Below, in pieces: positions 712 through 61,240 of a DNA stretch of 64,000 nt. The notes under the pieces are model-generated. The model was not told where the DNA came from. It saw only the letters and a list, made by a program, of their open reading frames with translations, and made no database searches. Both the position numbers and the translations under genes were made by a program. The stretch lies in the NCBI GenBank assembly GCA_963749655.1, contig CAVVOB010000022.1, positions 96,001 through 160,000 on the forward strand, in the 5' to 3' direction. The stretch comes from Nitrospirota bacterium (GTDB taxonomy: Bacteria > Nitrospirota > UBA9217). Within the stretch, counting starts at the first letter, position 1, and every line of letters begins with the position of its first letter.

Positions 712-2282
712 TTGTCCGACATCCACAGCGAACGAATACTCATCCTCGACTTCGGTTCCCAATACACCCAGCTCATTGCGCGCCGGGTGCGCGAGGCCAA
801 AGTCTATTGCGAAATCCTGCCTTATAATGCGGGCCTTGACAAGGTCAAGGCTTTCCGTCCCAAGGGCCTCATCCTGTCAGGAGGCCCTTCGAGCGTCTAC
901 GACAGCGGCGCGCCGCTCATCGACCGAGCGCATCTCGATCTCGGCATCCCGGTCCTGGGCATCTGCTACGGCATGCAGCTTTTGACCCATGTGCTCGGCG
1001 GGACGGTGGCCAAATCGACCAAGCGCGAATACGGCAGGGCAGAGCTGAATCATTCACGAGAACGAAGGTCGTTTTCAAGGGAATCGGCGACGGGACGGGA
1101 TCACAACGCCAACTCGAAACTGTCGTATGGATGAGCCACGGCGACCGCATCGAGAAGATGCCCGAGGGTTTCCACGCTATCGCCCATACCGACAATTCGC
1201 CGACTGCCGCTATGGCGAACGAGCAGAGAAGGTTCTTCGGCGTCCAGTTCCACCCCGAGGTCGTTCATACGCCGCAGGGCGTCCAGATCCTGCGAAATTT
1301 CGTGTACGGGATCTGTAAATGTGAGCCGTCCTGGACCATGGCCTCCTTTGTGGAGTATTCCGTATCAGAGATTTGGAAAGCCGTCGGGGACAAACAGGCT
1401 GTCTGCGGCCTCTCGGGCGGTGTTGACTCGTCCGTGGCTGCCGTGCTGGTGCACAAGGCTATCGGCAAGCAGCTGACGTGCATTTTTGTCGACAACGGCG
1501 TCCTCAGGAAGAATGAAGCGGCATCGGTCCAGAACTCGTTCAAAAACATGGGGCTCAATCTCAAGTACGTGGACGCGTCCCGGGAATTCCTGTCCCGTCT
1601 CAAAGGCGTCGAGGACCCTGAGAAGAAGCGGAAGATCATCGGCAACACCTTCATCGAGGTCTTCGAGCGTGAGGCCCATGCGGTGGGCGGGGCCGAGTTC
1701 CTGGTCCAGGGCACGCTTTATCCCGATGTGATCGAAAGCGTGTCGTTCAAAGGGCCGTCGGCGGTCATCAAGTCGCATCACAACGTGGGCGGCCTGCCGG
1801 AAAAGATGAAACTGAAGCTTGTCGAGCCCCTGCGCGAGCTCTTCAAGGACGAGGTGCGCGCCATCGGGCGTGAGATGGAGATGCCCGACGACATTATCGA
1901 CCGCCAGCCCTTCCCGGGTCCGGGCCTTGCCATCCGCATCCTGGGCGAGGTGACCGAATCTCGTCTCGCCATTCTTCGCGAAGCAGACGCCATTGTCATT
2001 GAGGAGATCAAGAAGGCAGGCCTCTACAAGCAGATCTGGCAGTCCTTTGCCGTGCTGCTCCCCATCAAGACCGTGGGCGTCATGGGAGACGAACGGACTT
2101 ACGAGAACGTTGTCGCCATCCGCGCGGTCACGAGCCAGGACGGTATGACTGCGGACTGGGCGAAGGTCCCCTATGACCTGCTCGGCATCATGTCGAACCG
2201 CATCATCAATGAAGTTAAAGGCGTGAACCGCGTTTGCTTCGACATCTCGTCCAAGCCGCCGAGTACGATCGAATGGGAATAG
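712..2282 (+). CDS. guaA: GMP synthase (glutamine-hydrolysing), frameshift(s) near 1050-1130
   Basis: [15 protein letters not shown] in ORF 712-1134; [31 protein letters not shown] in ORF 1131-2282. Confidence 0.95.
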
Positions 2283-7201: not shown

Positions 7202-8608
7202 ATGAATGATCGACAGTACAAAAAAACGGTGCTGGTCCTTATTTCCTTGTTTATCTTTCTGCATTTCCCCCTGCTGGTTCACACGGTCTCGCATTCCCAT
7301 AGCTGGCGTCAGGCAGATACGGCAGCCGTATCGAGGAATTTTTACGAAGAGTCCTTCAATTTTTTCTATCCAAGGGTCGATGCCAGGGGAGAACTGAGCG
7401 GCATAACTGGGATGGAGTTCCCGATGTATCAGTACCTGTCGGGAATACTGTATTTTGTTTTTGACACGGACGTCGACATTCCGGGGAAGCTGATTTCGCT
7501 GGTAAGCTCTGTCGTCGCCCTGATTTTTCTCATCGCGCTGGCAGCCAGCATAGACAAAACGATTACGGCTTCATCAATCGTTATCGTATATCTCACCTCC
7601 CCCTTCGTTTTCTTCTTTGCGACATCTTTCATGCCGGAACTGTTTGCTCTCAGTCTCGCACTGGCCGGGGTCTATTTTTTTACCCGTTATGAGCAGACGG
7701 GCCAGACCAACGAACTGATGGCGAGCATCCTGTTTCTTTGCCTTGCCAGCCTCTCGAGACCTTTTCTGATTTTTTTGTGCTATCCGCTGGTGCATACGTT
7801 TGTTGCCGACGTAAAAAAAGGGAAGTTCAACCGGGGGGTGTTTCTCGGAGGAACGGCGATACTCGCGGCATTCGCTTTCTGGTATTTTTACTGGTCGCCC
7901 TACCTGGTCCGGAAATTCGGTCTGGACATCTTTTTTTTCGGATCCGATTTGCACCATAACCTGGCAACCATGTCTTCATTTTCCTTCTGGTCTTTGCTGC
8001 TCAACGAAATAACCACCTCCTATCTCGGCTGGATATGGCTGCCGTTTACAGTGCACGGTTCTTGCGAATTATTTAGGAAGGGAAACCGTATCTATCGGTA
8101 TTTCCTGCTGGCCGGATTGATCGGTATTGTGGTGCTTGGATTGGTCTCGGGAAGGCACTTTTCCCCGCATTATTATTATTTGATTTGTCTCCTTCCCCTG
8201 TTGGTCATCAGCAGCGCTTTTTCCCTGGAGGCACTGTGCGGAAAGTTCAAAGTGAATCGTATGGCATTGGGCATCGCCCTCATTCTCATTATTTTTCTGA
8301 TCAAGATTCGCATCTATCGGGAAGATAGAGTTCTCATCGACACTATGGCTTCTATTCAACAGGCAACGGCGAAGAAGGACCTTGTTGTCGTAGAAACCAT
8401 AGGGGGGGTGGGCGGAGGCGGCGCAGGGAACTCTTATTCGCTCCATCATTTGAGAAGAAAAGGCTGGATTGTTACCAAGGAAGAGATAGCCTATCTCCCC
8501 TATATTCAGTTGCTGCACGATGAGGGCGCTCGATGGGTGATACCGCTGGAAAAGGGGAACTATTGCCTGTATCCGATTGCAGAGTGGGAGAAAAAAATAG
8601 CCGAATGA
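7202..8608 (+). CDS. GT-C fold glycosyltransferase (ArnT/family 39-like)
   Basis: WRQADTAAVSRNF, EFPMY motifs, multiple TM helices. Confidence 0.75.
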   Translation: MNDRQYKKTVLVLISLFIFLHFPLLVHTVSHSHSWRQADTAAVSRNFYEESFNFFYPRVDARGELSGITGMEFPMYQYLSGILYFVFDTDVDIPGKLISLVSSVVALIFLIALAASIDKTITASSIVIVYLTSPFVFFFATSFMPELFALSLALAGVYFFTRYEQTGQTNELMASILFLCLASLSRPFLIFLCYPLVHTFVADVKKGKFNRGVFLGGTAILAAFAFWYFYWSPYLVRKFGLDIFFFGSDLHHNLATMSSFSFWSLLLNEITTSYLGWIWLPFTVHGSCELFRKGNRIYRYFLLAGLIGIVVLGLVSGRHFSPHYYYLICLLPLLVISSAFSLEALCGKFKVNRMALGIALILIIFLIKIRIYREDRVLIDTMASIQQATAKKDLVVVETIGGVGGGGAGNSYSLHHLRRKGWIVTKEEIAYLPYIQLLHDEGARWVIPLEKGNYCLYPIAEWEKKIAE

Positions 8609-20361: not shown

Positions 20362-22704
20362 ATGAAAGATCTTCCGATGTCCGAAGAACAACGGAACGCT
20401 GACCAGGCTTTGCAGATCCGCGCAGACCAGGTCAGACAACTTCACGAGAATGCGCCCCTCGGCATGATCGCGACGGTCGTTAACGCCGCGGCCCTGGCTT
20501 ACATTCTCAGGGACGTGGTCTCCCCTCAGCCCCTTGCCTTGTGGCTTGCCGGGCTGCTGCTTGTCACGGTGCTTCGCTGTTTCCTTGTATACCGGTTCCG
20601 CCGCCGGCCATTGTCTTCTTCAGAAACGGTCCGCTGGAGCCCGTCGTTTATCGCGGGCATGGCCCTGTCAGGCCTTGCCTGGGGCGCAGCCGGCGTCTTC
20701 CTCCTTCCCGCAGGTTCGTTGACCCACCAGGTTTTTATCGCCTTCGCTCTGGGCGGCATGGTCGCCGGCGCCGCAGGCACGTTTTCAGCCATCCGGAGCG
20801 CGTATCTGGCATACAGCATTCCGACGCTCGCCCCCCTGATCATCCGTTTTTTCGCCTTCGGCGACGAGATCCACGTCACCATGGGAGGGATGACCCTTCT
20901 CTTTGCGCTTCTCATCCATATTATGGCGCTGCGCGTACACAATATGTCCGTCCTGTCGCTCAAGCTGCGCTACGAAAACAGCAGCCTGGTGTCCTATCTG
21001 GCCTGTGCAAAGGAGCGTGCGGAGCAGCTGAATGAAAACCTCCGGGCCGAGATTGCCGAACGAACAAAGGCCGAGGAGTCCCTGCAAAAGCACCAGGACC
21101 ACCTGGAAGAAGTGGTGAAGGAGCGCACGGCTGAATGGGCCCAAGCCAACATTCGGCTCCAGGAGGAGATGGCGGCGCGCAATGTGGAGGAAGCCCTGCG
21201 CCGGTCAAGCGAGATTTATTTCCGGTCGCTCATTGAAAACGTCTCGGACCTCATCACCGTGCTGGACAGCGGCGCCAATATTCTCTTCGAGAGCCCGTCG
21301 ATCGAACGCCTGCTGGGATACCGTCAGGACGAGCTGGTCGGCACGAACGTCTTTTCGTTTCTCCATCCCGACGACCAATCGTCAGCCCGGGAGGCATTCG
21401 CCCGGATTGTCGCAACCCCCGGCAGCTCCGAGACGATCGAGATCCGGGTGCGCCACCAGAGCAGCGCATGGCGGATATTTGAATCGATCGGCAAAAGCAT
21501 TGTCGACGAGGCAGGGGCCGTGCGCATTGTCATCAATTCCCGGGACATTACGGACCGGAAGCGGATGGAAGAGGACCTCCTGAAGATCCAGAAGCTGGAA
21601 TCTCTCGGTACGCTCGCCGGCGGCATCGCTCATGATTTCAACAATATCATCTCGGGCATTACGGCCAATATCGAACTGGCCCGGATGCACGTGAACCGCG
21701 ACGATCTGCTCGCGACCATTCTCGAGAAGGCGGAGCAGGCGTCCGTACAGGCGCATGGCCTGACCCAGCAGCTTCTTACCTTTGCCCGCGGCGGCGGCCC
21801 GGTCAAGAAAACAATAAAAATTTCCGATCTGATCCGCGAAGCAGCGACCTTTGCCCTGCGGGGGGCTCCTTCCACCGCGACCTTTTCCCTCTCCGACGAT
21901 ATGCGTTCCGTCGAGGCGGATGCCGGGCAGCTTCGTCAGGTCATCCATAACATTGTAAGCAATGCCGATCAGGCCATGCCTCGGGGCGGGCAGATCCTGA
22001 TCTGCGGCAGGAACGTGACGATCGGGGAGGGCGCCAGCACGACTCTCGAGCACGGGGATTATGTCGAGGTGACCATTTCAGACCAGGGCATCGGCATTCC
22101 CCCGGAGCATGTTACGAAAATCTTCGACCCCTATTTTACGACGAAGCAGCGGGGGAGCGGTCTGGGCCTCGCTACGGCCTATTCTATCGTTAAAAAGCAC
22201 AGCGGCAGCATCACCGTGTCGTCCGAGCTGGGCAGGGGAACAACAATATCGTTCTATCTTCCGGCCTCTGCGCAGGCGGCTGCCGCTTCGGCTCCCCCGG
22301 GCAGCCCCCTGGTACAGGGAAAGGGAAGAATCCTGATCATGGACGATGAGGCCGTCGTTCGAGACGCCGCGGGGAGGACCCTGGAGAGCGCGGGCTACGA
22401 AGTGGAGTCAGCGCAGGAAGGGACCGAAGCAATAGCGCTCTATTGCCGTGCGCGCGAGTCCGGCAGGCCCTTCGACGTGGTTATCATGGACCTTACCGTA
22501 CCCGGCGGCGTCGGCGGGAAGGACGCCGTAAAAAAACTGCTTGAGATAGATCCCGCGGCAAAGGCAATCGTCTCAAGCGGATATTCTCAAGACCCGGTTA
22601 TGGCGAACTACCGCGACTACGGCTTTCTGGCGGTCATCTCAAAACCCTTCTTTGTTCGTGAAATGACCGAGATCGTCGCGAAGGTCGTGGCGATGAAGGC
22701 CTGA
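20362..22704 (+). CDS. Membrane-bound PAS hybrid sensor histidine kinase with receiver domain
   Basis: TM sensor, PAS, AHDFNN H-box, N/G/F boxes (NADQAM, DQGIGI, FDPYFTTK, GSGLGL), REC (MDDE...MDLT...K). Confidence 0.92.
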   Translation: MKDLPMSEEQRNADQALQIRADQVRQLHENAPLGMIATVVNAAALAYILRDVVSPQPLALWLAGLLLVTVLRCFLVYRFRRRPLSSSETVRWSPSFIAGMALSGLAWGAAGVFLLPAGSLTHQVFIAFALGGMVAGAAGTFSAIRSAYLAYSIPTLAPLIIRFFAFGDEIHVTMGGMTLLFALLIHIMALRVHNMSVLSLKLRYENSSLVSYLACAKERAEQLNENLRAEIAERTKAEESLQKHQDHLEEVVKERTAEWAQANIRLQEEMAARNVEEALRRSSEIYFRSLIENVSDLITVLDSGANILFESPSIERLLGYRQDELVGTNVFSFLHPDDQSSAREAFARIVATPGSSETIEIRVRHQSSAWRIFESIGKSIVDEAGAVRIVINSRDITDRKRMEEDLLKIQKLESLGTLAGGIAHDFNNIISGITANIELARMHVNRDDLLATILEKAEQASVQAHGLTQQLLTFARGGGPVKKTIKISDLIREAATFALRGAPSTATFSLSDDMRSVEADAGQLRQVIHNIVSNADQAMPRGGQILICGRNVTIGEGASTTLEHGDYVEVTISDQGIGIPPEHVTKIFDPYFTTKQRGSGLGLATAYSIVKKHSGSITVSSELGRGTTISFYLPASAQAAAASAPPGSPLVQGKGRILIMDDEAVVRDAAGRTLESAGYEVESAQEGTEAIALYCRARESGRPFDVVIMDLTVPGGVGGKDAVKKLLEIDPAAKAIVSSGYSQDPVMANYRDYGFLAVISKPFFVREMTEIVAKVVAMKA

Positions 22705-22735
22705 AGTCCGGGGGATTATTCCTACGGTCGCAGAA

Positions 22736-22768
22736 TAAAAAAAGGCGCCTTTTCAGGCGCCTTTTTTG
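22736..22768. terminator. Bidirectional intrinsic terminator
   Basis: AAAAAAAGGCGCC-loop-GGCGCCTTTTTT between convergent genes. Confidence 0.85.
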
Positions 22769-22786
22769 TGTTCAGTCAGAACTGTC

Positions 22787-24994
22787 CTACCATGTTTCCG
22801 TTCCGTGGCAGCTGGGACTGCAGGTCGCGCCGTTGAAGTTGACGGAGCTCTTTATCGTCGCCGAAGCGGTCGCTTCCGATATCGGCGCAGTCAGAGACGT
22901 AAAGTGGCTCCCTGCCAGCTTCGTCGTATCGTGGCAGTCAGTGCACGCCCTTTGTTCACTGTAAACGTGACGCCGATGCTGGCCCGAGTAGTAGCTGTTG
23001 TTCTCCGGGCTGCCTGATGAGGAGCCGAGGACGTGGCATGCGGTGCACTGCGAGTTCACATCGATGGTTCCGGTGAGCCAGGACGGAGTGGAACCCGGTG
23101 TCGACTGGGGGGGATTCTGACCGGCCTGGGTCGATGTCTGCGTTCTTGATCCTCCGTGGCAGGAGATGTTCGAGCAGGTGTAGGTCGATGCATTGTACGA
23201 GGCCGTTCCTGATTTCGCATTATAGGTCGCGTCGAGGATCACATCAACGACATTGTTGAAATGATATGCTGTGCCCGAACCTGCGCCCTGATGGCAGGTG
23301 CCGCAGACAACAGACGAGTTGACGTTTGCATGAGGAGCGTGGCTGCCGGCAACGTTGGGGAAGGTTGTCCCGGACGGCGGCGTCCCGTGGCAGGACGCGC
23401 AGTCGCTTGTATTGATCGGCCAGGAGTGGCACGAAGCACATGACGGGCCGCTCGAGGAGACGCCGGTCAGATTTGTTCCATGACAATAGACGTTCGAACA
23501 GGAAGTCGTTCCGTTTGCGTAGGCATAGGCACTGTGGTTCCGCTGTACATCGGGGTACCAGCTGAGAAGGTGGACCTTGGTCTGGTCCTGCATATGGCAG
23601 CTCTTGCAGGCCACATGGGTGCCGCCGCCAAGGTAGTCCGTGCCGTGGCATTTCTGGCAGACCGTGTTGTCTGCAAGCGCCGATGTCTTATGGTCCGCGA
23701 CGACCCAAGCTGCCGCAGGATGGTCCAGGCCCGGTCCATTATGGCAGCTGTAACAACTCGTGCCGGTTGTTCCTCCCTGGTAGTCCGAGCCGTGGCAGGT
23801 TTTGCAGACGGAGAAATCCTGTTCCGCACTGACGCCGTGTTGTGTCGGGTCGGACCAGCCGGCAGGGTGGCCGACCTGAGCATGACAGAGCGTGCTGTTG
23901 AAACACCCGGGAGCGGTCCCTGCTGCCGCGGGCGGAGAAGGCTGCACCGAGGAGTTTGCGCCGTTCGTATGACAGAGCGCGCAGACCGTGGCGTTTCCTT
24001 CATTCGTGGTCGTATGGGTATAGGTGCCGTCGCGCCAGGGCTTGGGCGGATGGGGCGCGTTCACGCCGTGGCAGGAGGAACAGGCCGTGTTGGCAATGCC
24101 GCCGGAGAAGTCGGTGCCGTGGCACTCCTGGCATGAAGCAAAGCCGTTTGCCTGGGATTTTGCGCTGGCTCCGTGCTGGGCCGGGTCGGACCAGCCCGCA
24201 GCGTGGCCCACCGTTCCGTGGCAGAGCGTGTTGTTAAAACATCCGGGAGCGGTCCTTGCTGCCGCGGCCGGAGAAGGCTGCACCGAGGAGTTCGCGCCGT
24301 TCGTATGGCAGAGCGCGCAGACCGTGGCGTTCCCTTCATTCGTGGTCGTATGGGTATAGGTGCTGTCGCGCCAGGGCGCGGCCGGATGGGGCGCGTTCAC
24401 GCCGTGGCAGGAGGAACAGGCCGTGTTGGCAATGCCGCCGGAGAAGTCGGTGCCGTGGCACTCCTGGCATGAAGCAAAGCCGTTTGCCTGGGATTTTGCG
24501 CTGGCGCCGTGCTGGGCCGGGTCGGACCAGCCCGCAGCGTGGCCCACTGTCCCGTGGCAGAGCGTGTTGTTGAAACATCCGGGAGCGGTCCCTGCTGCCG
24601 CGGCCGGAGAAGGCTGCACCGAGGAATTCGCGCCGTTCGTATGGCAGAGCGCGCAGATCGAGGCATTCCCTTCGTCTGTCGATGTGTGCGTGTACGTGCT
24701 GCTGTCGCGCCAGGGCTTGGGCGGATGGGGCGCATTCACGCCGTGGCAGGAAGAACAGGCCGTATCGGCCATGCCGCCGGAGAAGTCGGAGCCATGGCAC
24801 TCCTGGCATGAAGAAAAGCCGTCGGCTTTCTTGGCCGCAGCGCCATGGGTACCTGCGCCGGACCAGCCTGCCGCATGGCGGCCCGTTGCGGGATCGATGA
24901 CCCTGTCTTTGCTTGCCGTGCTGCACGCCGCAGCGAGCATGATCAGGCCCGCACAGGACATGATGAGAACAACTATCCTCGTTCTGGAAAACAT
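22787..24994 (-). CDS. Multiheme c-type cytochrome lipoprotein (CxxCH/CxxxxCH type), up to ~24 hemes
   Basis: Lipobox LAAAC; counted 18 CX2CH, 1 CX3CH, 2 CX4CH and 3 CX5CH motifs. Confidence 0.9.
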   Translation of the reverse strand: MFSRTRIVVLIMSCAGLIMLAAACSTASKDRVIDPATGRHAAGWSGAGTHGAAAKKADGFSSCQECHGSDFSGGMADTACSSCHGVNAPHPPKPWRDSSTYTHTSTDEGNASICALCHTNGANSSVQPSPAAAAGTAPGCFNNTLCHGTVGHAAGWSDPAQHGASAKSQANGFASCQECHGTDFSGGIANTACSSCHGVNAPHPAAPWRDSTYTHTTTNEGNATVCALCHTNGANSSVQPSPAAAARTAPGCFNNTLCHGTVGHAAGWSDPAQHGASAKSQANGFASCQECHGTDFSGGIANTACSSCHGVNAPHPPKPWRDGTYTHTTTNEGNATVCALCHTNGANSSVQPSPPAAAGTAPGCFNSTLCHAQVGHPAGWSDPTQHGVSAEQDFSVCKTCHGSDYQGGTTGTSCYSCHNGPGLDHPAAAWVVADHKTSALADNTVCQKCHGTDYLGGGTHVACKSCHMQDQTKVHLLSWYPDVQRNHSAYAYANGTTSCSNVYCHGTNLTGVSSSGPSCASCHSWPINTSDCASCHGTPPSGTTFPNVAGSHAPHANVNSSVVCGTCHQGAGSGTAYHFNNVVDVILDATYNAKSGTASYNASTYTCSNISCHGGSRTQTSTQAGQNPPQSTPGSTPSWLTGTIDVNSQCTACHVLGSSSGSPENNSYYSGQHRRHVYSEQRACTDCHDTTKLAGSHFTSLTAPISEATASATIKSSVNFNGATCSPSCHGTETW
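23880..24880 (-). repeat. Intragenic tandem repeat, three ~336-bp (112-aa) units
   Basis: Near-identical CQECH-CSSCH-CALCH-CFNxTLCH modules visible at DNA level. Confidence 0.9.
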
Positions 24995-25104: not shown

Positions 25105-25326
25105 TAGCTAATTGTGATTTGAACGTCGATTTTTGGCCGAAAGGATTACGGCTTCAGGTCCGGTCCGTTTTCATTGTTCGGGAAAATATGTACGTCAGGA
25201 AACAGATGAGAAAAGACTATTCTGCTTCGGCGGGTACATTTTAACGAGAGTTGAAGTCCTTTCGGGATGGGGGCGCTCTGTGGCTGCGAGAAAGGTGATT
25301 GGATGCCGGTTTTATCCGGGAAATGC

Positions 25327-25361
25327 TTCGCGTCTCCGTCCGGGAGCCCGGAGACGCGAAG
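25327..25361. terminator. Strong hairpin downstream of the Ig-repeat gene
   Basis: CTTCGCGTCTCCG...CGGAGACGCGAAG 13-bp stem; weak U tract. Confidence 0.5.
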
Positions 25362-25382: not shown

Positions 25383-27362
25383 CTACAATGTTTTCCATAC
25401 CTCGTTCGAATAGCTGCTTTCCTGGCCGGAAATGTCAAGGTCGGTCACGGCGAAATAATACGTTCCCGCAGAGAGGTTCAAAGTATAGGTGACTACCGAC
25501 ACCCCGGGATTGGGAACGTCCACGGTTTTGTTGTAGCTCAGAGACGACGTTCCATAGTAGATCCGGTAGCTGCTGACGGCTGTCAGCGAACTCAGGGTTG
25601 ACCCGTCCACATAGGTCGTCGGAGCGTCCCAGGTCAGCGTCAGCGCACTGGTTCCTGCCACGACGGTGAGACCGGTGGTTCCTGAAACGCCGCCTGATGT
25701 CGCCGTGATAGAGGCGGATCCGGCAGCTACTCCGGAAGCAAGTCCCTTGGAACCTGAAGCGTTGCTGATGGTCGCAACGCCGGTGCTGGAAGAGCTCCAA
25801 GTCGCTGAGTTCGTCAGGACCTGCGTAGAACCGTCCGTATACGCGCCCGTTGCAACGAACTGCTGTGTCGTTCCCGCGCCGATGCTTGGATTGGACGGTG
25901 TGACGGCGATGGAGACCAGGGTCGCCGAGGTCACCGCGAGAGTGGTCGAGCCCAAGACGCTGCCCGACGTTGCCGTTATCGTGGTTGAGCCGACTGCCAC
26001 GCTGGTTGCCGCGCCCCGGGCGCCTGTTGCATTGCTGATGGTTGCAATACCGGTGCTGGAAGAGCTCCAGGTCACCGAATTCGTCAGTACCTGCGTAGAA
26101 CCGTCGGTGTAGGTGCCGGTGGCTGCGAACTGCTGTGCCGTTCCCTTGGCGATGCTGGGATTGGACGGCGTCACCGCGATGGATATGAGTGTCGCCGAGG
26201 TCACCGTGAGGGCGGCTGAACCAGAAATGCTGCCCGACGATGCCGCGACTGTGGTTGAGCCGACAGCCAGGGAAGTTGCCGCGCCCTGAGAACCTGCAGC
26301 ATTGCTGACGGTCGCAACTGCCTGATTTGAAGATTCCCAAGCTACCGAGTTCGTAAGGGTCTGCGTGGACCCGTCGGAGTAGGTGCCAATGGCAACGAAC
26401 TGCTGTGCTGTTCCCTTGGCGATGCTGGGGCTGGACGGTGTGACAGCGATGGAGACCAGGGTCGCCGAGGTCACCGTGAGGGTGGTCGAGCCTGAGATGC
26501 CGCCTGATGTTGCCGAGATCGTGGTGGAGCCGACTGCCACAGATGTTACTGCGCCCCGGGAACCTGAATCGTTGCTGATCGATGCAACGCCGGTGCTGGA
26601 AGAGCTCCACGACACGCCTTCCGTCAGATCCTGCACCGAGTTGTCCGAGAAAGTGCCGGTGGCGATAAACTGCTGGGCGGTTCCCTTGGCAATACTGGGA
26701 TTGGTCGGTGTGACCGAGATGGAGGCCAGGGTCACCGAGGTTACTGTCAGGGTGGCCGAGGCCGAGATATTTTCGGACGCTGCCGTGATCGTTGTTGAAC
26801 CGGCGCTCACAGCCGTGGCCAGTCCGCTGCTGACCGTTGCTACGGCCTGGCTCGAAGAGGTCCATACTGCTGATGCCGTCAAGTCCTGCGTCGTACCGTC
26901 TGAAAAAGTGCCGACGGCCGTAAATCTCTGCGTCGTACCCTTGGCGATGGATCCCCCTGTGGGAGTGACTGCGATGGAGACCAGCGTTGCATCGGTTACG
27001 CTGACCGTGGTATCAGCCTCAATGTCGCCCGAGGAGGCCTTGATGGTGGCAGAGCCGGATTTTTTTCCCTTTACGTGGCCCGGGCTGTCGATCTCGGCTG
27101 TCGATGAGTCGGAGGAAGTCCAGGTGACGTACTTGGTCAGGTCCCGCGTCGACTTGTCGGAGTACACGCCCGTGGCAACGAACTGTTGATCGGTGTTTTT
27201 TGCCAACGCCGCATTGACCGGGGTAATAGAAATGGAGGCGAGCGTCGCTCCGTCCCCGGTTCCCTTTGACGGCCCCTGGGGGCTGCCGGCGCCGCACGCT
27301 GCCAGGCCTGCTGCAATCAGCGAAACCGTCAGTAGAAAGAAGCCCGTCCTTGACTTGATCAT
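25383..27362 (-). CDS. Surface lipoprotein with six Big_2 (Lig-like Ig) repeats and a C-terminal FN3-like domain
   Basis: GAGGAGG RBS, MIKSR...LAAC lipobox, six L.SI.VTP...I.KGT.QQF.A.G.Y.D units (~90 aa), LTWDAP...YRIYYG...YYFAV end. Confidence 0.85.
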   Translation of the reverse strand: MIKSRTGFFLLTVSLIAAGLAACGAGSPQGPSKGTGDGATLASISITPVNAALAKNTDQQFVATGVYSDKSTRDLTKYVTWTSSDSSTAEIDSPGHVKGKKSGSATIKASSGDIEADTTVSVTDATLVSIAVTPTGGSIAKGTTQRFTAVGTFSDGTTQDLTASAVWTSSSQAVATVSSGLATAVSAGSTTITAASENISASATLTVTSVTLASISVTPTNPSIAKGTAQQFIATGTFSDNSVQDLTEGVSWSSSSTGVASISNDSGSRGAVTSVAVGSTTISATSGGISGSTTLTVTSATLVSIAVTPSSPSIAKGTAQQFVAIGTYSDGSTQTLTNSVAWESSNQAVATVSNAAGSQGAATSLAVGSTTVAASSGSISGSAALTVTSATLISIAVTPSNPSIAKGTAQQFAATGTYTDGSTQVLTNSVTWSSSSTGIATISNATGARGAATSVAVGSTTITATSGSVLGSTTLAVTSATLVSIAVTPSNPSIGAGTTQQFVATGAYTDGSTQVLTNSATWSSSSTGVATISNASGSKGLASGVAAGSASITATSGGVSGTTGLTVVAGTSALTLTWDAPTTYVDGSTLSSLTAVSSYRIYYGTSSLSYNKTVDVPNPGVSVVTYTLNLSAGTYYFAVTDLDISGQESSYSNEVWKTL

Positions 27363-27404
27363 GTTGTTTTCCTCCTCTGCTAGAGCGATTAATAAACCGG
27401 TGAT

Positions 27405-27500
27405 CATCTCTGGCGGCTCGGCGGACATTGGAGCTTGATGCTCGTTAGTCCCGTTGCTCTGCGTCCCAGGGTTTCCCCTGGTTTGCTCTGAGCAGAGAAG
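27405..27500 (-). ncRNA. GEMM-I (c-di-GMP-I class) riboswitch, A20 variant (cGAMP-type, GEMM-Ib)
   Basis: Minus strand CAGAGCAAACCAGGG-GAAA-CCCUGGGACGCAGAGCAACGGGACUAA...AUGUCCGCCGAGCCGCCAGAG matches the GCAAA-P2(GAAA)-GACGC-P3 architecture. Confidence 0.85.
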
Positions 27501-27842
27501 GTCTCGAACATGGATTTCAGCGCCGGCTATCACCAGGGCCCATGCCCTTCATTCATTGGCCGCATGTTACTCGAAGCGCGAAATAGAGTCTGTGACCATG
27601 GATACAATAAATAGTGTGATCTCGATCACACGATTAAAAGGCCCTTTCGCGAGCGAAATTTTTTTCGCGCAAATTTTCGATCGTGCCTCATAGTCGGGTC
27701 TTCGGCGTACGTGCACCGAAGCGACAGGGCGGCGGTGAGGGCCTCTTTGCGGACTGCGCGGAGCAGGGGGCGGCCGCAAGAGAGTGTGTCTGAAGTGACC
27801 GGCGTTTTTCTTCTGAAAACAGGCAATTAATCTGCTTTCCGT

Positions 27843-30041: not shown

Positions 30042-30338
30042 ATGTCTAGCGAACGCGTTCAGGTTGAAATATACGGCCAGGTTTACAGCATCAAGGGCGA
30101 GGGCGATGCCGCCCGGATCCGTGAACTCGCCGCCTATATCGACAGCCGGATGAAAGAGGTCGAGAAGGGGACGGGGACCGTCGATCCCCATCGGGTCGCA
30201 ATTCTGGCCGCGCTGACGATCGCTGACGAGTATTACCGGCTGCGTGAACGATTCGGAGATCTGGCATTGTCCGCCGATCTCGCCGCAAAACGCATGCTCG
30301 CCCTTTTGGAAGCAGTGGAGGAGCCCGATAAAACATAG
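30042..30338 (+). CDS. zapA: Cell division protein ZapA
   Basis: V.VEIYGQ.Y.I, LA.YID..M, RVAILAALTIADE; sits before 6S RNA. Confidence 0.9.
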   Translation: MSSERVQVEIYGQVYSIKGEGDAARIRELAAYIDSRMKEVEKGTGTVDPHRVAILAALTIADEYYRLRERFGDLALSADLAAKRMLALLEAVEEPDKT

Positions 30339-30494: not shown

Positions 30495-30675
30495 AGTCCC
30501 CTGCTTTGCGCGTGATGGATATAACTTGTTCCTCGTGAAAAAAAAATAACGGGAGCTGAAATGTGAAAAGGGTGTGCATGCCCAGATTAGACTGGGAAGC
30601 CTGAACTTTTCACCGAGGCACCCACCTGGTAAATACCAGGAATCAAGTCTATCTACACGGCAAAAGCGGGGGATT
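30495..30675 (+). ncRNA. ssrS: 6S RNA
   Basis: ~180-nt rod closed by UCCCCUGCUUUGC/GCAAAAGCGGGGGA, A-rich central bubble, GGGAGC and GGCACCCACCUG motifs, downstream of zapA, upstream TTGCCA/TATATACT promoter. Confidence 0.88.
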
Positions 30676-30713
30676 TTTTTACTCCCTGATTTTTGCACAA
30701 TTGTGTATAGCAA

Positions 30714-40455: not shown

Positions 40456-42393
40456 ATGAAATCCGCCTTCAAATCGGGTACTGAAAATAATTATATCCTT
40501 GAGGACGTTGTTGCATTTCTGAAAAAGGTCCCTCCCTTCCAGTTCCTTCTTGAGAAGGAGCTGCAGCTGGTTGCCAGGAACCTGTCCATGGATTTTTACC
40601 CCCAGGGCACGGTGATTCTGAAGCAGGACGGCCCCCCGAGCGATGCGCTCAGGATCATCAAGAAGGGCGGCATCAAGGTTTCCATGGTTTCCGAGGACGG
40701 CGGCGAGGTCGTCATCGATTACCGCGGGGAAGGCGATACCTTCGGATTCCTGTCGCTGGTGGGCAAAGACCGGGTGCGCTCCAACATAACAGCCGTTGAG
40801 GACACGATCTGTTATCTCCTCGGCAAGGAGATGCTCCTGCAGCTGCTCGATTCACAGCGGTCCTTTACCGAGTATTTCCTCAAGTCGCACATCACGAAAT
40901 ACATCGACCGGACCTATCAGGAGATGCACGACAAGAGCATGTTCTACGGCGGCAGCGACCGGCTGCTGTTCACGACCCGCGTGGGCGACATGGCGGTCAA
41001 GGGGATCATCGACACGCGCGAGGAAACGCCGATCCGCGATGCGGCCAGGATCATGTCCGACAACCGCATCAGCTCCATCGTGATCGTCAATGAAAACAAG
41101 CTGCCGGTGGGGATCGTCACGGACCGGGACCTGCGGGAAAAAGTCGTGGCAAAGGGCCGCAGCGTGCAGGAGCCGGTAAAGAACATCATGAGCGCGACGC
41201 TCATCCGCGTGGACGCACGGGACTACTGCTTCGAAGCCGTGCTCAGGATGATCAAGTACAACATCCACCATATCCTCGTCATCAAGGACGGGAAGCTCCT
41301 GGGCGTCATCACGAACCACGACCTCATGATGCTGCAGGGCACGTCGCCGCTGTCGCTGACCAAGGACATCGAGAGCCAGCAGACCATCGAAGGCCTCATC
41401 CCGGTCTCGAAGAAGATAAACAGCATCGTCGGACTGCTGCTTAAAGAAGGCGCAAAGGCGAGCAACATCACCAAGATCATCACCGAGATCAACGACCGCC
41501 TCGTCCGCAAGGTACTCGAGTTCGCCGAACGAAAGCACGGGAAGCCGCCGGTACCCTACTGCTGGGTTTCCCTGGGGAGCGAGGGCCGGCGGGAGCAGAC
41601 TTTTAAAACCGACCAGGACAACGCCATCATTTACGGCGATCCCGCAACGGATGCCGAGGCGGAAGCAGCGAAGAAATATTTTACGGCCTTCACCGACTAC
41701 GTTCGCGACGGACTGGTTCAGTGCGGGTTCCCGGTCTGCCCCGCCAATTACATGGCAAGCAATCCGCAGTGGTGCCAGCCGCTGAAGGTCTGGAAGAAGT
41801 ATTTCTCGACGTGGGTTTCGACGCCCACGCCCGACGCCGTACTGAATTCGCTCATCCTGTTCGATTTCCGTCCGATGTACGGCGATGTCAAGCTTGCCGA
41901 GACGCTGCGGGATTACCTGAACTCCTTTGTGAAGGACGAGAAGGTCTTCCTGGGCTACCTTGCCAACATGGTGATCAAGAACACGCCGCCCATCGGCTTC
42001 TTCAAGTCCTTTGTCGTGGAGAAGGGCGGAGAGCACAAGGATGAGCTGAATCTCAAGATCAAGGGGCTGGCTCTTCTGGTGGACATCATGCGGCTCTTCG
42101 CGCTCGAGAAGGGGATCAGCGAAACCTCGACGCTGGAGCGCATTGATACGCTTCGGAGCATACACACCATTGTCGAGGAGTACGCCGACGATTTCGAGCA
42201 GGCCTTCGAGTTCATCATGCTGCTCCGAATCCACCACCAGTACCAGCAGATCGGTTCAGGCCAGGCGCCCGACAATTTCATCAATCCGAACCGGCTGAGC
42301 AACCTCGAAAAAAGGTCCATCAAGGAGGCCTTCCAGCTCGTTACGACCGTGCAGGACCTGATCATCGAGCGGTACAAGTCGCTGATCTGGTAA
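40456..42393 (+). CDS. cNMP-binding + CBS pair + DUF294 nucleotidyltransferase-like protein
   Basis: PPFQ.L cNMP domain, GIVTDRDLR CBS, LGSEGRREQTFKTDQDNA, FDFR, C-terminal NFINP. Confidence 0.9.
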   Translation: MKSAFKSGTENNYILEDVVAFLKKVPPFQFLLEKELQLVARNLSMDFYPQGTVILKQDGPPSDALRIIKKGGIKVSMVSEDGGEVVIDYRGEGDTFGFLSLVGKDRVRSNITAVEDTICYLLGKEMLLQLLDSQRSFTEYFLKSHITKYIDRTYQEMHDKSMFYGGSDRLLFTTRVGDMAVKGIIDTREETPIRDAARIMSDNRISSIVIVNENKLPVGIVTDRDLREKVVAKGRSVQEPVKNIMSATLIRVDARDYCFEAVLRMIKYNIHHILVIKDGKLLGVITNHDLMMLQGTSPLSLTKDIESQQTIEGLIPVSKKINSIVGLLLKEGAKASNITKIITEINDRLVRKVLEFAERKHGKPPVPYCWVSLGSEGRREQTFKTDQDNAIIYGDPATDAEAEAAKKYFTAFTDYVRDGLVQCGFPVCPANYMASNPQWCQPLKVWKKYFSTWVSTPTPDAVLNSLILFDFRPMYGDVKLAETLRDYLNSFVKDEKVFLGYLANMVIKNTPPIGFFKSFVVEKGGEHKDELNLKIKGLALLVDIMRLFALEKGISETSTLERIDTLRSIHTIVEEYADDFEQAFEFIMLLRIHHQYQQIGSGQAPDNFINPNRLSNLEKRSIKEAFQLVTTVQDLIIERYKSLIW

Positions 42394-56685: not shown

Positions 56686-58037
56686 CTAAGAAGATTAAAT
56701 ATGCATCGTAGGCCCATTTGAAGCTGCTTTTATAGCTTTAACGTTCTTTGATAACTTGACACGTTTAGATGCAAAGGGTATCGTCTTGCCTTATGAAGAA
56801 GACTACCCTTAGCACGCTTTATAGTTTTCCTGGTTTTCGCGCCCAGTCTCGGTTAAAGGATGATCCGGACGATCCCGGTGGCCGCATTATTGTCCTTCGA
56901 CGACGGCAAAAAAAACTACCTGTTCATGTGGCCGTAGTCAGCGAGGCTTCTACGATCGCATCATGCATCGGGTCAGGGACCTTGACTCCGGCGGCATTCG
57001 CATCCATCTCGAGTTTGAATATCGGCGCATGTTCTGCCGGAGGTGTCAAACTGTGAAGCGCGAGACCCTTGCCTGGCTGGCATCATCCAAGAGATTTACC
57101 GGACGATTCGAACAGGCCATCGGGCGTCAGTGTCGTGAGATGTCTATATCCCGAGTGGCTGAAATGAACCGTTTGAGCTGGGACCAGGTCCAACGCATCG
57201 AGAAAAACTACATGCGCGATCTGCTGGCGAAGCACCCGCCGTCCAAGGACCTTCGCGTGATCGGCATCGACGAAGTCTCGATTCGGAAGGGCCATACCTA
57301 TGCGATCGTTGTAGCTGATCTGGATCAGCATCGCCCTATCTGGATTGGCGGCAACGGCCGCAAGGAAGAAGACTTGGACCTCTTCTTCAATGAAATCGGG
57401 CCGAATACGGCCAAGGGCATCAAACTGGCAGTCATGGATATGTGGAAGCCTTTCAGAAACGCTACCAAACACCACGCGCCGGACGCTCAACTCGTCTTCG
57501 ATAAGTTTCACGTACTCCAGCACCTGTCGTTTGCCTTGGATGAGGTCAGACGGAGCGAATATAAACGTGTCAATGACAAAGAACGACGGTTCATCAAGGG
57601 CCAGCGCTATACGCTGCTTTCAAACCGGGACAACCTGGATATGGATGGCAGACGGGCCTTGCAACTCTTACTCAAGGCCAATAGCCGCCTTCACAAGGCC
57701 TATCTACTCAAGGAATCCTTCGGGCAGCTGTGGTCATACAACAATCCAGCCTGGGCGCGAAAGTTCTTTGAGAACTGGAAAGCGCAGCTCCGATGGAGCC
57801 GCTTGGAACCGTTTCAAAAGTTTGCTGCAATGATCGAACGTCACTGGGATGGCATCGTCAGTTACTGTCATCCCGACAATAAGGTGTCCCTCGGATTCAT
57901 GGAGGGACTAAACAACAAGATCCGGGTGATTCAGCGTCGGGCTTATGGCATTAAAGATAAAGAGTATCTTCGATTGAAGGTACTGACTTCCTTTCTCCCA
58001 GATGCCAAAAGTGACCCACACTAAACCCGGAAGACCC
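56660..58037 (+). mobile_element. Complete ISL3-family insertion sequence (1378 bp)
   Basis: Imperfect IRs GGATCTTCAGGCTTT / AAACCCGGAAGACCC; 8-bp target duplication AGAAAACA at 56652-56659 and 58038-58045. Confidence 0.9.
56793..58024 (+). CDS. ISL3 transposase, -1 frameshift at an A8 run (56908-56915)
   Basis: IGIDE, VMDMW, FDKFH, EGLNNKIRVI.RRAYG; the Zn-finger CSC...CRRC is completed only by the -1 shift. Confidence 0.9.
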
Positions 58038-60786: not shown

Positions 60787-61240
60787 GTAGGTCGGGTAGA
60801 GCGCAGCGAAACCCGACGGAATCGCAATGATTGACCAAGCCTTCGAGATATCATGCGATACAAACGATCAATTGCAAAAGGGCTTCATTCTTTCTCATCG
60901 TTGTAACGGATAAGCGAAGAAAATTTCTGTGTCATGATGCTAATGTCCGTCTTCTTCGCGAAGCTTTCCGGACGGTCAGGTCCCGTCACCCGTTTACCAT
61001 AGACGCTTTCGTGTTGTTGCCGGATCATCTGCACTGCATTTGGACTTTACCGGAGCAGGATAGTGATTTTCCCATGCGCTGGGTCAGATCAAGAGTCATC
61101 TCAGCAGATATTGCAGTGATGAGTTCAAGGGACAACGAACGGCAGTGTATCTCGCCAAGTCATTTGGCAGAAAAGATATTGGGAGCATCATATCTGGGAT
61201 GAGGCCGATTTGATCCATCATGTAGAGTACATTCACACCC
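60787..61240 (+). pseudogene. REP + degraded REP-associated tyrosine transposase (RAYT)
   Basis: GTAG REP at 60787-60817; FF.IVVT..R, HPFTIDAFVLLPDHLHCIWTLP HUH motif; WQKRYWEH and HVEYIH in a shifted frame, truncated. Confidence 0.8.

Follow-up and report, generated by a model that had tools for sequence, protein, structure and literature searches.

The 64,000-nucleotide stretch of DNA analysed here (the window) carries on its minus strand an RNA that, judged by its sequence, is a genuine member of the GEMM-I class of cyclic-dinucleotide riboswitches. It lies upstream of a gene encoding a lipoprotein with Big_2 stretches. With moderate confidence, we predict that this RNA is a translational ON riboswitch of the lipoprotein gene, whose aptamer is bispecific for 3',3'-cGAMP and c-di-GMP. 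The GEMM-I fold class is already known; the RNA described here is a natural member with A at the position equivalent to G20 of the Vc2 aptamer (hereafter, position 20), and it precedes the gene for a surface lipoprotein in a Nitrospirota-like host. Features are listed in Table 1.

Table 1. Positions in the window of the riboswitch elements and neighbouring genes
Feature	Position	Strand	Details
GEMM-I aptamer, full length	27409..27497	minus	cmscan
Aptamer 5' segment CUCUGCUCAGAGC, then AAACC	27497-27485	minus	
A at the Vc2 G20 / Gs1761 A14 equivalent	27487	minus	Model position 11, top posterior probability
P1 5' strand UCUCUG	27493..27498	minus	Partner 27412-27407 (aptamer fold) or 27379-27374 (OFF fold)
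P1 3' strand CAGAGA, immediately 3' of J1/3	27407..27412	minus	Folds
P2 hairpin	27461..27486	minus	Closing pairs G27486-C27461 and C27485-G27462; 6-bp stem; GAAA tetraloop 27475-27472; cmscan structure line
J2/3 A, equivalent of Vc2 A47 / Gs1761 A41	27460	minus	Model position 38, consensus A; J2/3 is A41 in Gs1761 (PMC6274999)
P3 hairpin with tetraloop-receptor-like CUAA / AAUG internal loop	27415..27459	minus	cmscan alignment
J1/3 (G27414, C27413)	27413..27414	minus	Model positions 82-83 (consensus gC); J1/3 is G74-C75 in Gs1761 (PMC6274999)
Switching strand GCUCUAGCAGAGGAGG, holding the SD GAGGAGG (27377-27371)	27371..27386	minus	16 pairs, one bulged C
Segment GCUCUAGCAGAG, complementary to the aptamer 5' arm	27386-27375	minus	Sequence
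AACAUG, including the start codon (27362-27360)	27360..27365	minus	Pairs with CAUGUU; MFE and duplex folds
Upstream CAUGUU, partner of the start-codon segment	27506..27511	minus	MFE and duplex folds
Regulated gene: 659-aa lipoprotein with six Big_2 (bacterial Ig-like) stretches	25383..27362	minus	Pfam PF02368, E 1.4e-66
13-bp hairpin just past the lipoprotein stop codon, weak U run after it	25326..25361	minus	Fold
735-aa multihaem c-type cytochrome, next gene on the same strand, 18 CXXCH motifs	22787..24994	minus	Pfam Cytochrome_C7 and c3; NCBIfam CxxxxCH/CxxCH domain

The aptamer and its ligand pocket

The covariance model of Rfam family RF01051 (c-di-GMP-I, GEMM-I) matches the minus strand at 27497-27409 over its full length (model positions 1-87 of 87). 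The match scores 59.3 bits, the gathering score being 35, with an E-value of 4.7e-9 for a search of both strands of the 64 kb with 4227 families. The original prediction of a GEMM-I aptamer is thus upheld by the covariance model. RF01051 also stays the best member of its clan in a permissive scan, in which two lower-scoring clan matches were suppressed. Posterior probabilities are top-valued throughout the 5' part of the aptamer.

The hairpin P2 is formed in every minimum free energy (MFE) structure that we computed. Its GNRA cap (GAAA) and the receptor-like loop of P3 are both present, with CUAA and AAUG of the latter aligning to the consensus CUAAg and uAuG. At the base of P3, two pairs are marked by cmscan as non-standard, namely A27458/C27415 and A27455/A27418, which makes this end of the hairpin weaker. 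Five of the six P1 pairs, U27498-A27407 through U27494-A27411, occur in the MFE structure of the aptamer alone, and the sixth, G27493-C27412, is probably the counterpart of the G8-C76 pair reported for Gs1761 (PMC6274999). P1 is missing from the ligand-free MFE structure once the upstream leader is added. The aptamer lies in a 5' leader: it ends 46 nt upstream of the AUG, and both the SD and the AUG pair with its 5' arm.

At model position 11, where the consensus is an upper-case G, the RNA has A27487, the last unpaired base before the GC/GC closure of P2. It reads CAG-A-GCAAACC, against CAG-G-GCAAACC as given for the Vc2 c-di-GMP aptamer in the original prediction. This substitution had been noted originally, and both a direct reading of the sequence and the cmscan alignment agree with it. 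Because the G is strongly conserved at this model position, A27487 is a marked departure. J1/2 of Gs1761 is described as A9-A14, with P2 beginning at C15-G40 (PMC6274999), and A14 is reported to correspond to Vc2 G20 (PMC6140456); by the numbering in these sources, model position 11 is therefore the equivalent of Vc2 G20 and Gs1761 A14. A27487 ends a J1/2 of 6 nt, the length also given for Gs1761 (PMC6274999). At A27487 the RNA departs from the consensus at a known variant position, which makes it a variant within the GEMM-I fold class.

Outside position 20, we compared the ligand pocket with those of known aptamers. The bases equivalent to Vc2 A47 and C92 are both present (A27460 and C27413), and C27413 is the counterpart of the Vc2 C92 and Gs1761 C75 that are reported to pair with G-beta of the ligand (PMC6140456, PMC6274999). 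At model position 39, a G replaces the consensus A. The first P2 pair is G27486-C27461, and A27487 is preceded by C-A-G, placing C at -3 relative to it. The Gs1761 pocket is described as involving A11, A12, A14 and C15-G40 (PMC6274999); this Geobacter-type context, with a C-G first P2 pair and A at both -3 and -2, is not that of the window RNA. A GEMM-I RNA in a Geobacteraceae metagenome-assembled genome (locus L004) does follow the Gs1761 pattern, having A-A-U before A20 and a C-G first P2 pair. The window and L004 aptamers were compared through their cmscan alignments, as a MAFFT alignment was out of register and was discarded. Read from these bases, the pocket outside position 20 is of the Vc2 kind and not of the Geobacter kind.

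Pairing of the ribosome-binding site with the aptamer

It had been proposed that the 5' arm of the aptamer is complementary, with one bulged C, to 27386-27375, overlapping the SD. We find this pairing, and it is longer than was proposed. The switching strand can pair through its 5' part with J1/2 and the base of P2 (27489-27485 and 27492-27491), and through its 3' part with the P1 5' strand plus four bases upstream. An 11-pair helix runs from C27501-G27371 through U27491-A27381 with one G-U pair; C27490 is bulged; and five pairs follow, A27489-U27382 through C27485-G27386. Six more pairs join CAUGUU (27511-27506) to AACAUG (27365-27360). In total, 22 pairs (5 + 11 + 6) cover J1/2, the P1 5' strand, GAGGAGG and the AUG. 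The spacing from SD to AUG is 8 nt.

Such complementarity is improbable by chance. The duplex energy is -32.4 kcal/mol, whereas 2000 dinucleotide-preserving shuffles of the target gave a mean of -13.9 (sd 3.0; z -6.2), and none of the 2000 was as good. Among 4410 tiled 58-nt segments from both strands of the 64 kb, the switch site ranks third as a partner of the arm, and the two better-ranked segments are the arm's own complementary strand. One other place, 1190-1276 on the plus strand, lies within 1.5 kcal/mol of the duplex energy of the switch site. A terminator scan found no terminator between the aptamer and the AUG. The P1 and OFF-helix pairings are both read from one sequence at a single locus.

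The OFF helix engages 27501-27485, bases that also belong to P1, J1/2 and the foot of P2. The 5' arm can therefore pair either within the aptamer or with the SD, so ligand binding should free the ribosome-binding site. These mutually exclusive pairings support the translational ON switch of the original prediction, although we infer the direction of switching from the pairings themselves. A translational ON switch is our best reading. In the proposed mechanism, without ligand the strand 27386-27371, with its SD, would invade the single-stranded J1/2 and the P2 base, and would then zip along the P1 5' strand, after which six further pairs would hide the AUG and the ribosome site would be closed. 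With ligand, J1/2 (including A27487), A27460 and C27413 would grip the dinucleotide, and P1 would form with the proximal strand 27412-27407, covering the site of invasion, such that the SD and AUG would remain single-stranded.

The aptamer fold has a predicted energy of -30.6 kcal/mol and the OFF fold -49.9. The unconstrained MFE is -57.4 kcal/mol, with the OFF helix included, and it is -40.4 kcal/mol when 27386-27363 are held unpaired. In the ensemble, the SD bases are unpaired with probability 0.00-0.01. By nearest-neighbour energies the closed fold is thus about 17-19 kcal/mol below the aptamer fold, and we infer that the decision between them must be kinetic. In folds of the growing transcript, P2 and the core pairs last until the 3' end reaches 27380, and the OFF helix dominates from 27376. 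The decision would accordingly fall during transcription of about 30 nt, from 27408 to about 27380. The pilM cGAMP switch provides a precedent, being reported to work under kinetic control with a binding window of 25 nt (PMC9262584). It is important to consider that, given the large stability of the OFF fold, the ligand might not hold the SD open for long; this fold also carries an outer 4-nt toehold (27501-27498).

Ligand range and alternative interpretations

Because a Vc2-like pocket accompanies the A at position 20, we predict, from the analogy of a single mutant in a different aptamer, that the aptamer is bispecific. G20A Vc2 is reported to bind c-di-GMP at 53 nM and cGAMP at 120 nM, and bispecificity is said to be frequent among natural A20 members (PMC6140456). 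Selectivity is also said to be altered by mutations in lower P2 (PMC9262584, citing Ren 2015). Tight cGAMP binding requires A at position 20. A27487 should permit tight binding of 3',3'-cGAMP, and in the cell the RNA would respond to whichever dinucleotide is made, at least to c-di-GMP. The label "cGAMP-type" given in the original prediction holds in part, in that A20 is present and should permit tight cGAMP binding. However, it need not imply membership of the Geobacter GEMM-Ib subclass, given the Vc2-like pocket and the bispecificity of G20A Vc2. That cGAMP, and not c-di-GMP, is the natural signal does not follow from the sequence by itself, nor does use of cGAMP by the organism.

The RNA shares with G20A Vc2 of Vibrio cholerae its fold class and the A at position 20, and with Vc2 it shares G-C as the first pair of P2 as well as the bases at -2 (A) and -3 (C), where the Vc2 bases are those given in the original prediction and in PMC6140456. 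However, G20A Vc2 is an engineered mutant, whereas the window RNA is natural. The P1 and P3 sequences are unlike those of Vc2, and the G at model position 39 is a further difference. Moreover, Vc2 is reported to act as a translational OFF switch by masking a remote ribosome-binding site (PMC9262584, citing Inuzuka 2018), while the window element appears to be built as ON. Cbe 1-2 of Clostridium beijerinckii and other natural A20 GEMM-I members are also close systems, which we liken to it by their description only.

An alternative is that the RNA is a cGAMP-selective GEMM-Ib riboswitch, in an organism that makes 3',3'-cGAMP with a Hypr GGDEF or another cyclase and that, as in Geobacter, switches on surface and electron-transfer proteins with it. 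We consider this unlikely. Its A at the G20 position and its ON logic are shared with Geobacter GEMM-Ib RNAs such as Gs1761/pgcA, Gmet_0970 and pilM (for ON direction, PMC6456294, PMC9262584), and A20G is reported to convert a Geobacter riboswitch from cGAMP to c-di-GMP (PMC6456294). Gs1761 has in common with it a three-helix junction, the length of J1/2 (6 nt), closure of P1 by a G-C pair and the GC of J1/3 (PMC6274999). The genomic setting is also similar, with surface and multihaem cytochrome genes nearby: the neighbouring 18-haem cytochrome has a Geobacter-type CxxxxCH/CxxCH domain, and in G. sulfurreducens GEMM-Ib RNAs are reported to precede cytochrome operons, e.g., GSU2885-2882 (PMC6456294). 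However, the other pocket features described for Gs1761 (PMC6274999) and seen in L004 are absent, with G-C in place of C-G as the first P2 pair and C in place of A at -3, and in a Vc2-like pocket G20A is reported to be bispecific (PMC6140456). Geobacter GEMM-Ib RNAs are described as acting through an intrinsic terminator (PMC9262584), and in L004 a terminator overlaps the 3' strand of the aptamer; the window element instead masks the SD and AUG and has no terminator. The hosts also differ, being Geobacter in one case and Nitrospirota-like in the other. A GGDEF domain was found in none of the 55 ORFs scanned in the 64-kb window, the cytochrome apparently has its own promoter behind a hairpin, and a literature search combining Nitrospirota with riboswitches or signalling returned nothing relevant.

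Another possibility, though not a probable one, is an ordinary c-di-GMP riboswitch that switches on an adhesin-like surface lipoprotein, with c-di-GMP as its sole physiological ligand and A20 tuning affinity for it down to a useful range. A20 RNAs are reported to bind c-di-GMP through a protonated adenine, stable above pH 8.3 (PMC6140456). The gene under direct control encodes a Big_2 lipoprotein, not a cytochrome, and, among cyclic dinucleotides, c-di-GMP is said to be the most widespread, governing attachment and biofilm formation (PMC8835794). On the other hand, the A departs from a G that the consensus strongly conserves, and A20 would let cGAMP in too if the cell makes it. It is also conceivable, but very unlikely, that the long helix is constitutive, serving translational dampening or RNA stability, or that the aptamer is a decaying relic, in either case without ligand-dependent switching. 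The energetic lead of the OFF fold and the two mismatches at the base of P3 would be consistent with this. However, the model is matched over its full length far above threshold, and all pocket bases except G20 are retained. Moreover, the invading strand matches exactly the ligand-contacting J1/2 and the P1 strand, which plain masking of a ribosome-binding site does not need, and the growing-transcript folds include an interval during which the aptamer fold is the stable one.

Our preferred reading remains the bispecific ON switch, which even under a cautious view offers a clean, compact translational ON platform for GEMM-I. Since its masking strand is aimed at the ligand-contacting junction, it would lend itself to tests of kinetic control and possibly to use as a sensor part. 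Were the switch truly cGAMP-selective, a Nitrospirota lineage with Geobacter-like multihaem cytochromes would deploy surface proteins through a cGAMP pathway of the Hypr type, which we regard as quite unlikely. In that case, cGAMP signalling through riboswitches would reach beyond the Geobacter group and would here use a translational platform in place of a terminator-based one. If A20 does reflect real cGAMP sensing, this would be a second bacterial phylum with RNA-read cGAMP, and the signal would be tied to surface proteins beside cytochromes of extracellular electron transfer.

Regulated gene, neighbourhood and related loci

The N-terminus of the lipoprotein has a hydrophobic stretch ending in LAAC. 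Its protein matches are mostly driven by the Big_2 repeats, the best being 42-63% identical, and its own cluster has one member. The hairpin past its stop codon was not called by the terminator scan. A spacer of 388 nt separates the lipoprotein gene from the cytochrome gene, upstream of which is a promoter-like TTGACG-17-TACGAT (25104-25076); the cytochrome gene probably has its own promoter.

We considered a neighbouring HD-domain protein as a dinucleotide phosphodiesterase, and rejected this assignment: the protein matches a YhaM-type exoribonuclease (229.8 bits, short of the 460 that the model sets as its cut-off) and contains an OB fold. The guaA gene in the window is apparently frameshifted, so single-base indel errors are possible in the assembly.

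Related loci were collected by searching genome contigs with the downstream cytochrome, which gave 17 loci. At the Rfam gathering threshold, GEMM-I occurs in one of the 17, the Geobacteraceae locus L004, where it is located downstream of the cytochrome. The four Nitrospirota loci that are closest (L001, L002, L003 and L008) were scanned permissively with Rfam, which yielded six weak matches, none to GEMM. L002 has only 1.1 kb of upstream DNA, too short to reach the equivalent place; the three related Nitrospirota cytochrome loci with enough upstream DNA (L001, L003 and L008) are without such a riboswitch. In L001, the upstream neighbours are sensor proteins encoded on the opposite strand.

Aptamer identity and predicted ligand range

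On the minus strand, positions 27497-27409 match the Rfam model of the c-di-GMP-I (GEMM-I) riboswitch (RF01051) over its entire length, scoring 59.3 bits where the gathering score is 35, with an E-value of 4.7e-9 for a search space comprising both strands of the 64-kb window and 4227 Rfam families. In a permissive Rfam scan of the whole window, only this element and a 6S RNA scored at or above the gathering score; the other eight matches listed fell far under theirs, and two weaker matches of the same clan were suppressed beneath GEMM-I. The model alignment (see table) places the conserved single-stranded bases of GEMM-I in the element, along with non-standard pairs at the base of P3 (A27458/C27415 and A27455/A27418) and a G at model position 39, where the consensus has A.

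It was originally predicted that this aptamer has A in place of G20 of Vc2, the Vibrio cholerae GEMM-I riboswitch, and this is correct: A27487 occupies model position 11, the final unpaired base 5' of P2, with top posterior probability, while the consensus has an upper-case G. In PMC6274999, the structure of Gs1761, a Geobacter GEMM-Ib cGAMP riboswitch, has P1 formed by G1-G8 with C76-G84, J1/2 by A9-A14, P2 starting from C15-G40, J2/3 at A41, P3 starting from A42-U73 and J1/3 at G74-C75. Because the window RNA maps onto this scheme without gaps, the assignment is free of alignment ambiguity. PMC6140456 equates A14 of Gs1761 with Vc2 G20, and has C92 of Vc2 pairing with G-beta of the ligand.

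However, the label "cGAMP-type" stands only as regards A20, and not as regards a Geobacter-like pocket. Outside position 20, the first P2 pair is G27486-C27461 and the bases before A20 are C-A-G, whereas Gs1761 has a C15-G40 pair with A11 and A12 (PMC6274999), and a GEMM-I aptamer in a Geobacteraceae locus, L004 (7623-7699, 45.3 bits), shows A-A-U ahead of its A, with C-G as the first pair. In view of this pocket context, the window RNA appears from its sequence to correspond, as a natural RNA, to Vc2 G20A and not to the Geobacter subclass. According to PMC6140456, Vc2 G20A binds c-di-GMP at 53 nM and cGAMP at 120 nM, and Cbe 1-2 and other naturally occurring A20 members are bispecific via a stably protonated adenine. 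By analogy, we predict that the window RNA accepts both dinucleotides. A truly cGAMP-selective switch, which would reveal cGAMP signalling in a Nitrospirota lineage, is unlikely. A change of selectivity from cGAMP to c-di-GMP upon A20G is described for the Geobacter riboswitch Gmet_0970 (PMC6456294).

Features of the riboswitch and its surroundings
Feature	Position	Strand	Basis
P1-closing pair	G27493-C27412	-	mapped on Gs1761 scheme
J1/2, six bases CUCAGA	27492-27487	-	mapped on Gs1761 scheme
P2 two-pair closure	G27486-C27461 and C27485-G27462	-	Rfam model alignment
P2 stem, 6 bp, GAAA cap	27475-27472 (GAAA)	-	Rfam model alignment
J2/3 adenine	A27460	-	mapped on Gs1761 scheme
P3 hairpin, receptor-like internal loop CUAA / AAUG		-	Rfam model alignment
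J1/3	G27414-C27413	-	mapped on Gs1761 scheme
SD GAGGAGG, 8 nt 5' of AUG	27377-27371	-	
Start codon AUG	27362-27360	-	
Closed helix, 11 pairs (one G-U)	C27501..U27491 with G27371..A27381	-	fold/duplex
Closed helix bulge	C27490	-	
Closed helix, 5 pairs	A27489..C27485 with U27382..G27386	-	fold/duplex
Outer helix beyond 5 x 5 internal loop	CAUGUU 27511-27506 with AACAUG 27365-27360	-	fold/duplex
13-bp hairpin	3' of lipoprotein gene		fold
388-nt spacer with promoter-like TTGACG-17-TACGAT	between lipoprotein and cytochrome genes		
18-haem cytochrome	next gene beyond 388-nt spacer		

Expression platform and proposed switching

In L004, a strong hairpin followed by a U6 tail overlaps the aptamer's 3' strand, i.e., a terminator-type platform, whereas a terminator scan found none between the window aptamer and its gene. 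The mechanical ORF opens at GTG 27533, but we take AUG 27362-27360 as the true start because a lipoprotein-type signal, ending in LAAC, begins there. The originally proposed complementarity between the aptamer's 5' arm and the SD is real and more extensive than first given, as it runs from C27501 to C27485 and is joined by a helix that buries the AUG. The duplex of the 5' arm with the RBS region has an energy of -32.4 kcal/mol, which none of 2000 dinucleotide-preserving shuffles of the target reached (mean -13.9, sd 3.0). When 4410 windows were tiled across both strands of the 64 kb, the only better duplex score came from the complement of the arm itself, and one unrelated site, 1190-1276 (+), approaches the observed energy.

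P2 and P3 are retained in both open and closed folds. Since the closed helix takes up the P1 5' strand, the entire J1/2 including A27487 and both P2 closing pairs, it and the ligand-bound pocket are mutually exclusive in the modelled structures. Nearest-neighbour energies are -30.6 kcal/mol for the aptamer fold with P1 and -49.9 kcal/mol for the closed fold; the unconstrained MFE is -57.4 kcal/mol and includes the closed helix, the MFE with 27386-27363 held open is -40.4 kcal/mol, and the SD bases have unpaired probabilities of 0.00-0.01. When growing transcripts are folded, P2/core pairs stay in the MFE up to a 3' end at 27380, and the closed helix dominates once the 3' end is at 27376. Five of the six P1 pairs form in the isolated aptamer, and P1 is missing from the apo MFE with extra leader attached.

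We infer from these folds that the element is most likely an ON switch under kinetic control. The aptamer would capture its ligand during a transcription window of ~30 nt. With ligand bound and J1/2 thus occupied, GCUCUAG (27386-27380), the start of the switching strand, would have no landing site. With ligand absent, it would pair with the free J1/2 and oust the proximal P1 strand, and the SD and later the AUG would be pulled into the closed helix. The wide energy gap and the presence of a 4-nt outer toehold (27501-27498) are grounds for doubting this direction and scheme. A comparable binding window of 25 nt, with kinetic control, is reported for the pilM cGAMP switch, and the translational Vc2 switch has been suggested to be kinetically controlled as well (PMC9262584).

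GEMM-I riboswitches, A20 variants and translational platforms are already published (PMC6140456, PMC9262584), and this element is a further example. It is mildly unusual in its host phylum, in the ON-type masking of both RBS and AUG, and in a masking strand that targets the ligand-contacting junction. A literature search of limited coverage found nothing relevant on Nitrospir* with either GEMM riboswitches or Hypr GGDEF proteins.

Regulated gene, neighbours and host

The regulated gene encodes a lipoprotein of 659 aa with six Big_2 stretches. Because a hairpin, a 388-nt spacer and a promoter-like sequence intervene before the cytochrome gene, the sequence suggests that the riboswitch is tied to it by adjacency, perhaps with read-through, rather than by a demonstrated operon. 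The GEMM-Ib regulon of G. sulfurreducens includes cytochrome operons and lipoproteins (PMC6456294), and the likeness of the window's neighbourhood to it is suggestive only. The closest cytochrome relatives, at 62, 53 and 50% identity, come from Nitrospirae/Nitrospirota MAGs; a GEMM match was absent from the related loci with sufficient upstream DNA (L001, L003 and L008). The window's aspartyl-tRNA synthetase is 84-91% identical to proteins among the matches listed, and of those with an organism label, seven are designated Nitrospirae or Nitrospirota bacterium and one Betaproteobacteria bacterium. No GGDEF domain was found in the 55 window ORFs scanned (32 at E <= 1e-5 and 23 at E <= 1e-3).

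Other observations

A near-perfect palindrome (27614-27631) lies 117 nt 5' of the aptamer, between the riboswitch-bearing gene and a divergent yhaM-like gene. It comprises TGTGA (27615-27619), a six-base gap and TCACA (27626-27630), the half-site pattern of the CRP/FNR family; the terminator scan also scored it as terminator-like (-), and no gene ends there. The 6S RNA (RF00013, 100.6 bits; 30495-30676, +) immediately follows the ZapA gene (30042-30338), and this zapA-ssrS order is the E. coli arrangement. Several terminator-like sRNA models of Rfam match weakly on both strands at 22672-22822, between convergent cytochrome and histidine-kinase genes, which probably marks a bidirectional terminator.

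The GMP synthase gene (712-2282, +) is split over two reading frames, with ORF 712-1134 covering GATase profile positions 1-130 and ORF 1131-2282 covering 127-188 onward. The frame shifts at ~1040-1075, which reflects either a single-base indel wrongly introduced during assembly or a genuine frameshift in this essential gene. The protein encoded at 40456-42393 (+) has CBS pairs and a DUF294 nucleotidyltransferase as well as a cyclic-nucleotide-binding domain, and its gene is followed by that of an RNase T-like exonuclease. An ISL3-family transposase gene lies at 56963-58024 (+), and the match at 60831-61202 (+) to an IS200-like Y1 transposase is weak and adjoins a PIN-domain ORF. L004 carries a T-box leader (2291-2504) ahead of a LeuA-like gene, and its A20-type GEMM-I with terminator (7623-7735) precedes an NHL-repeat beta-propeller gene.
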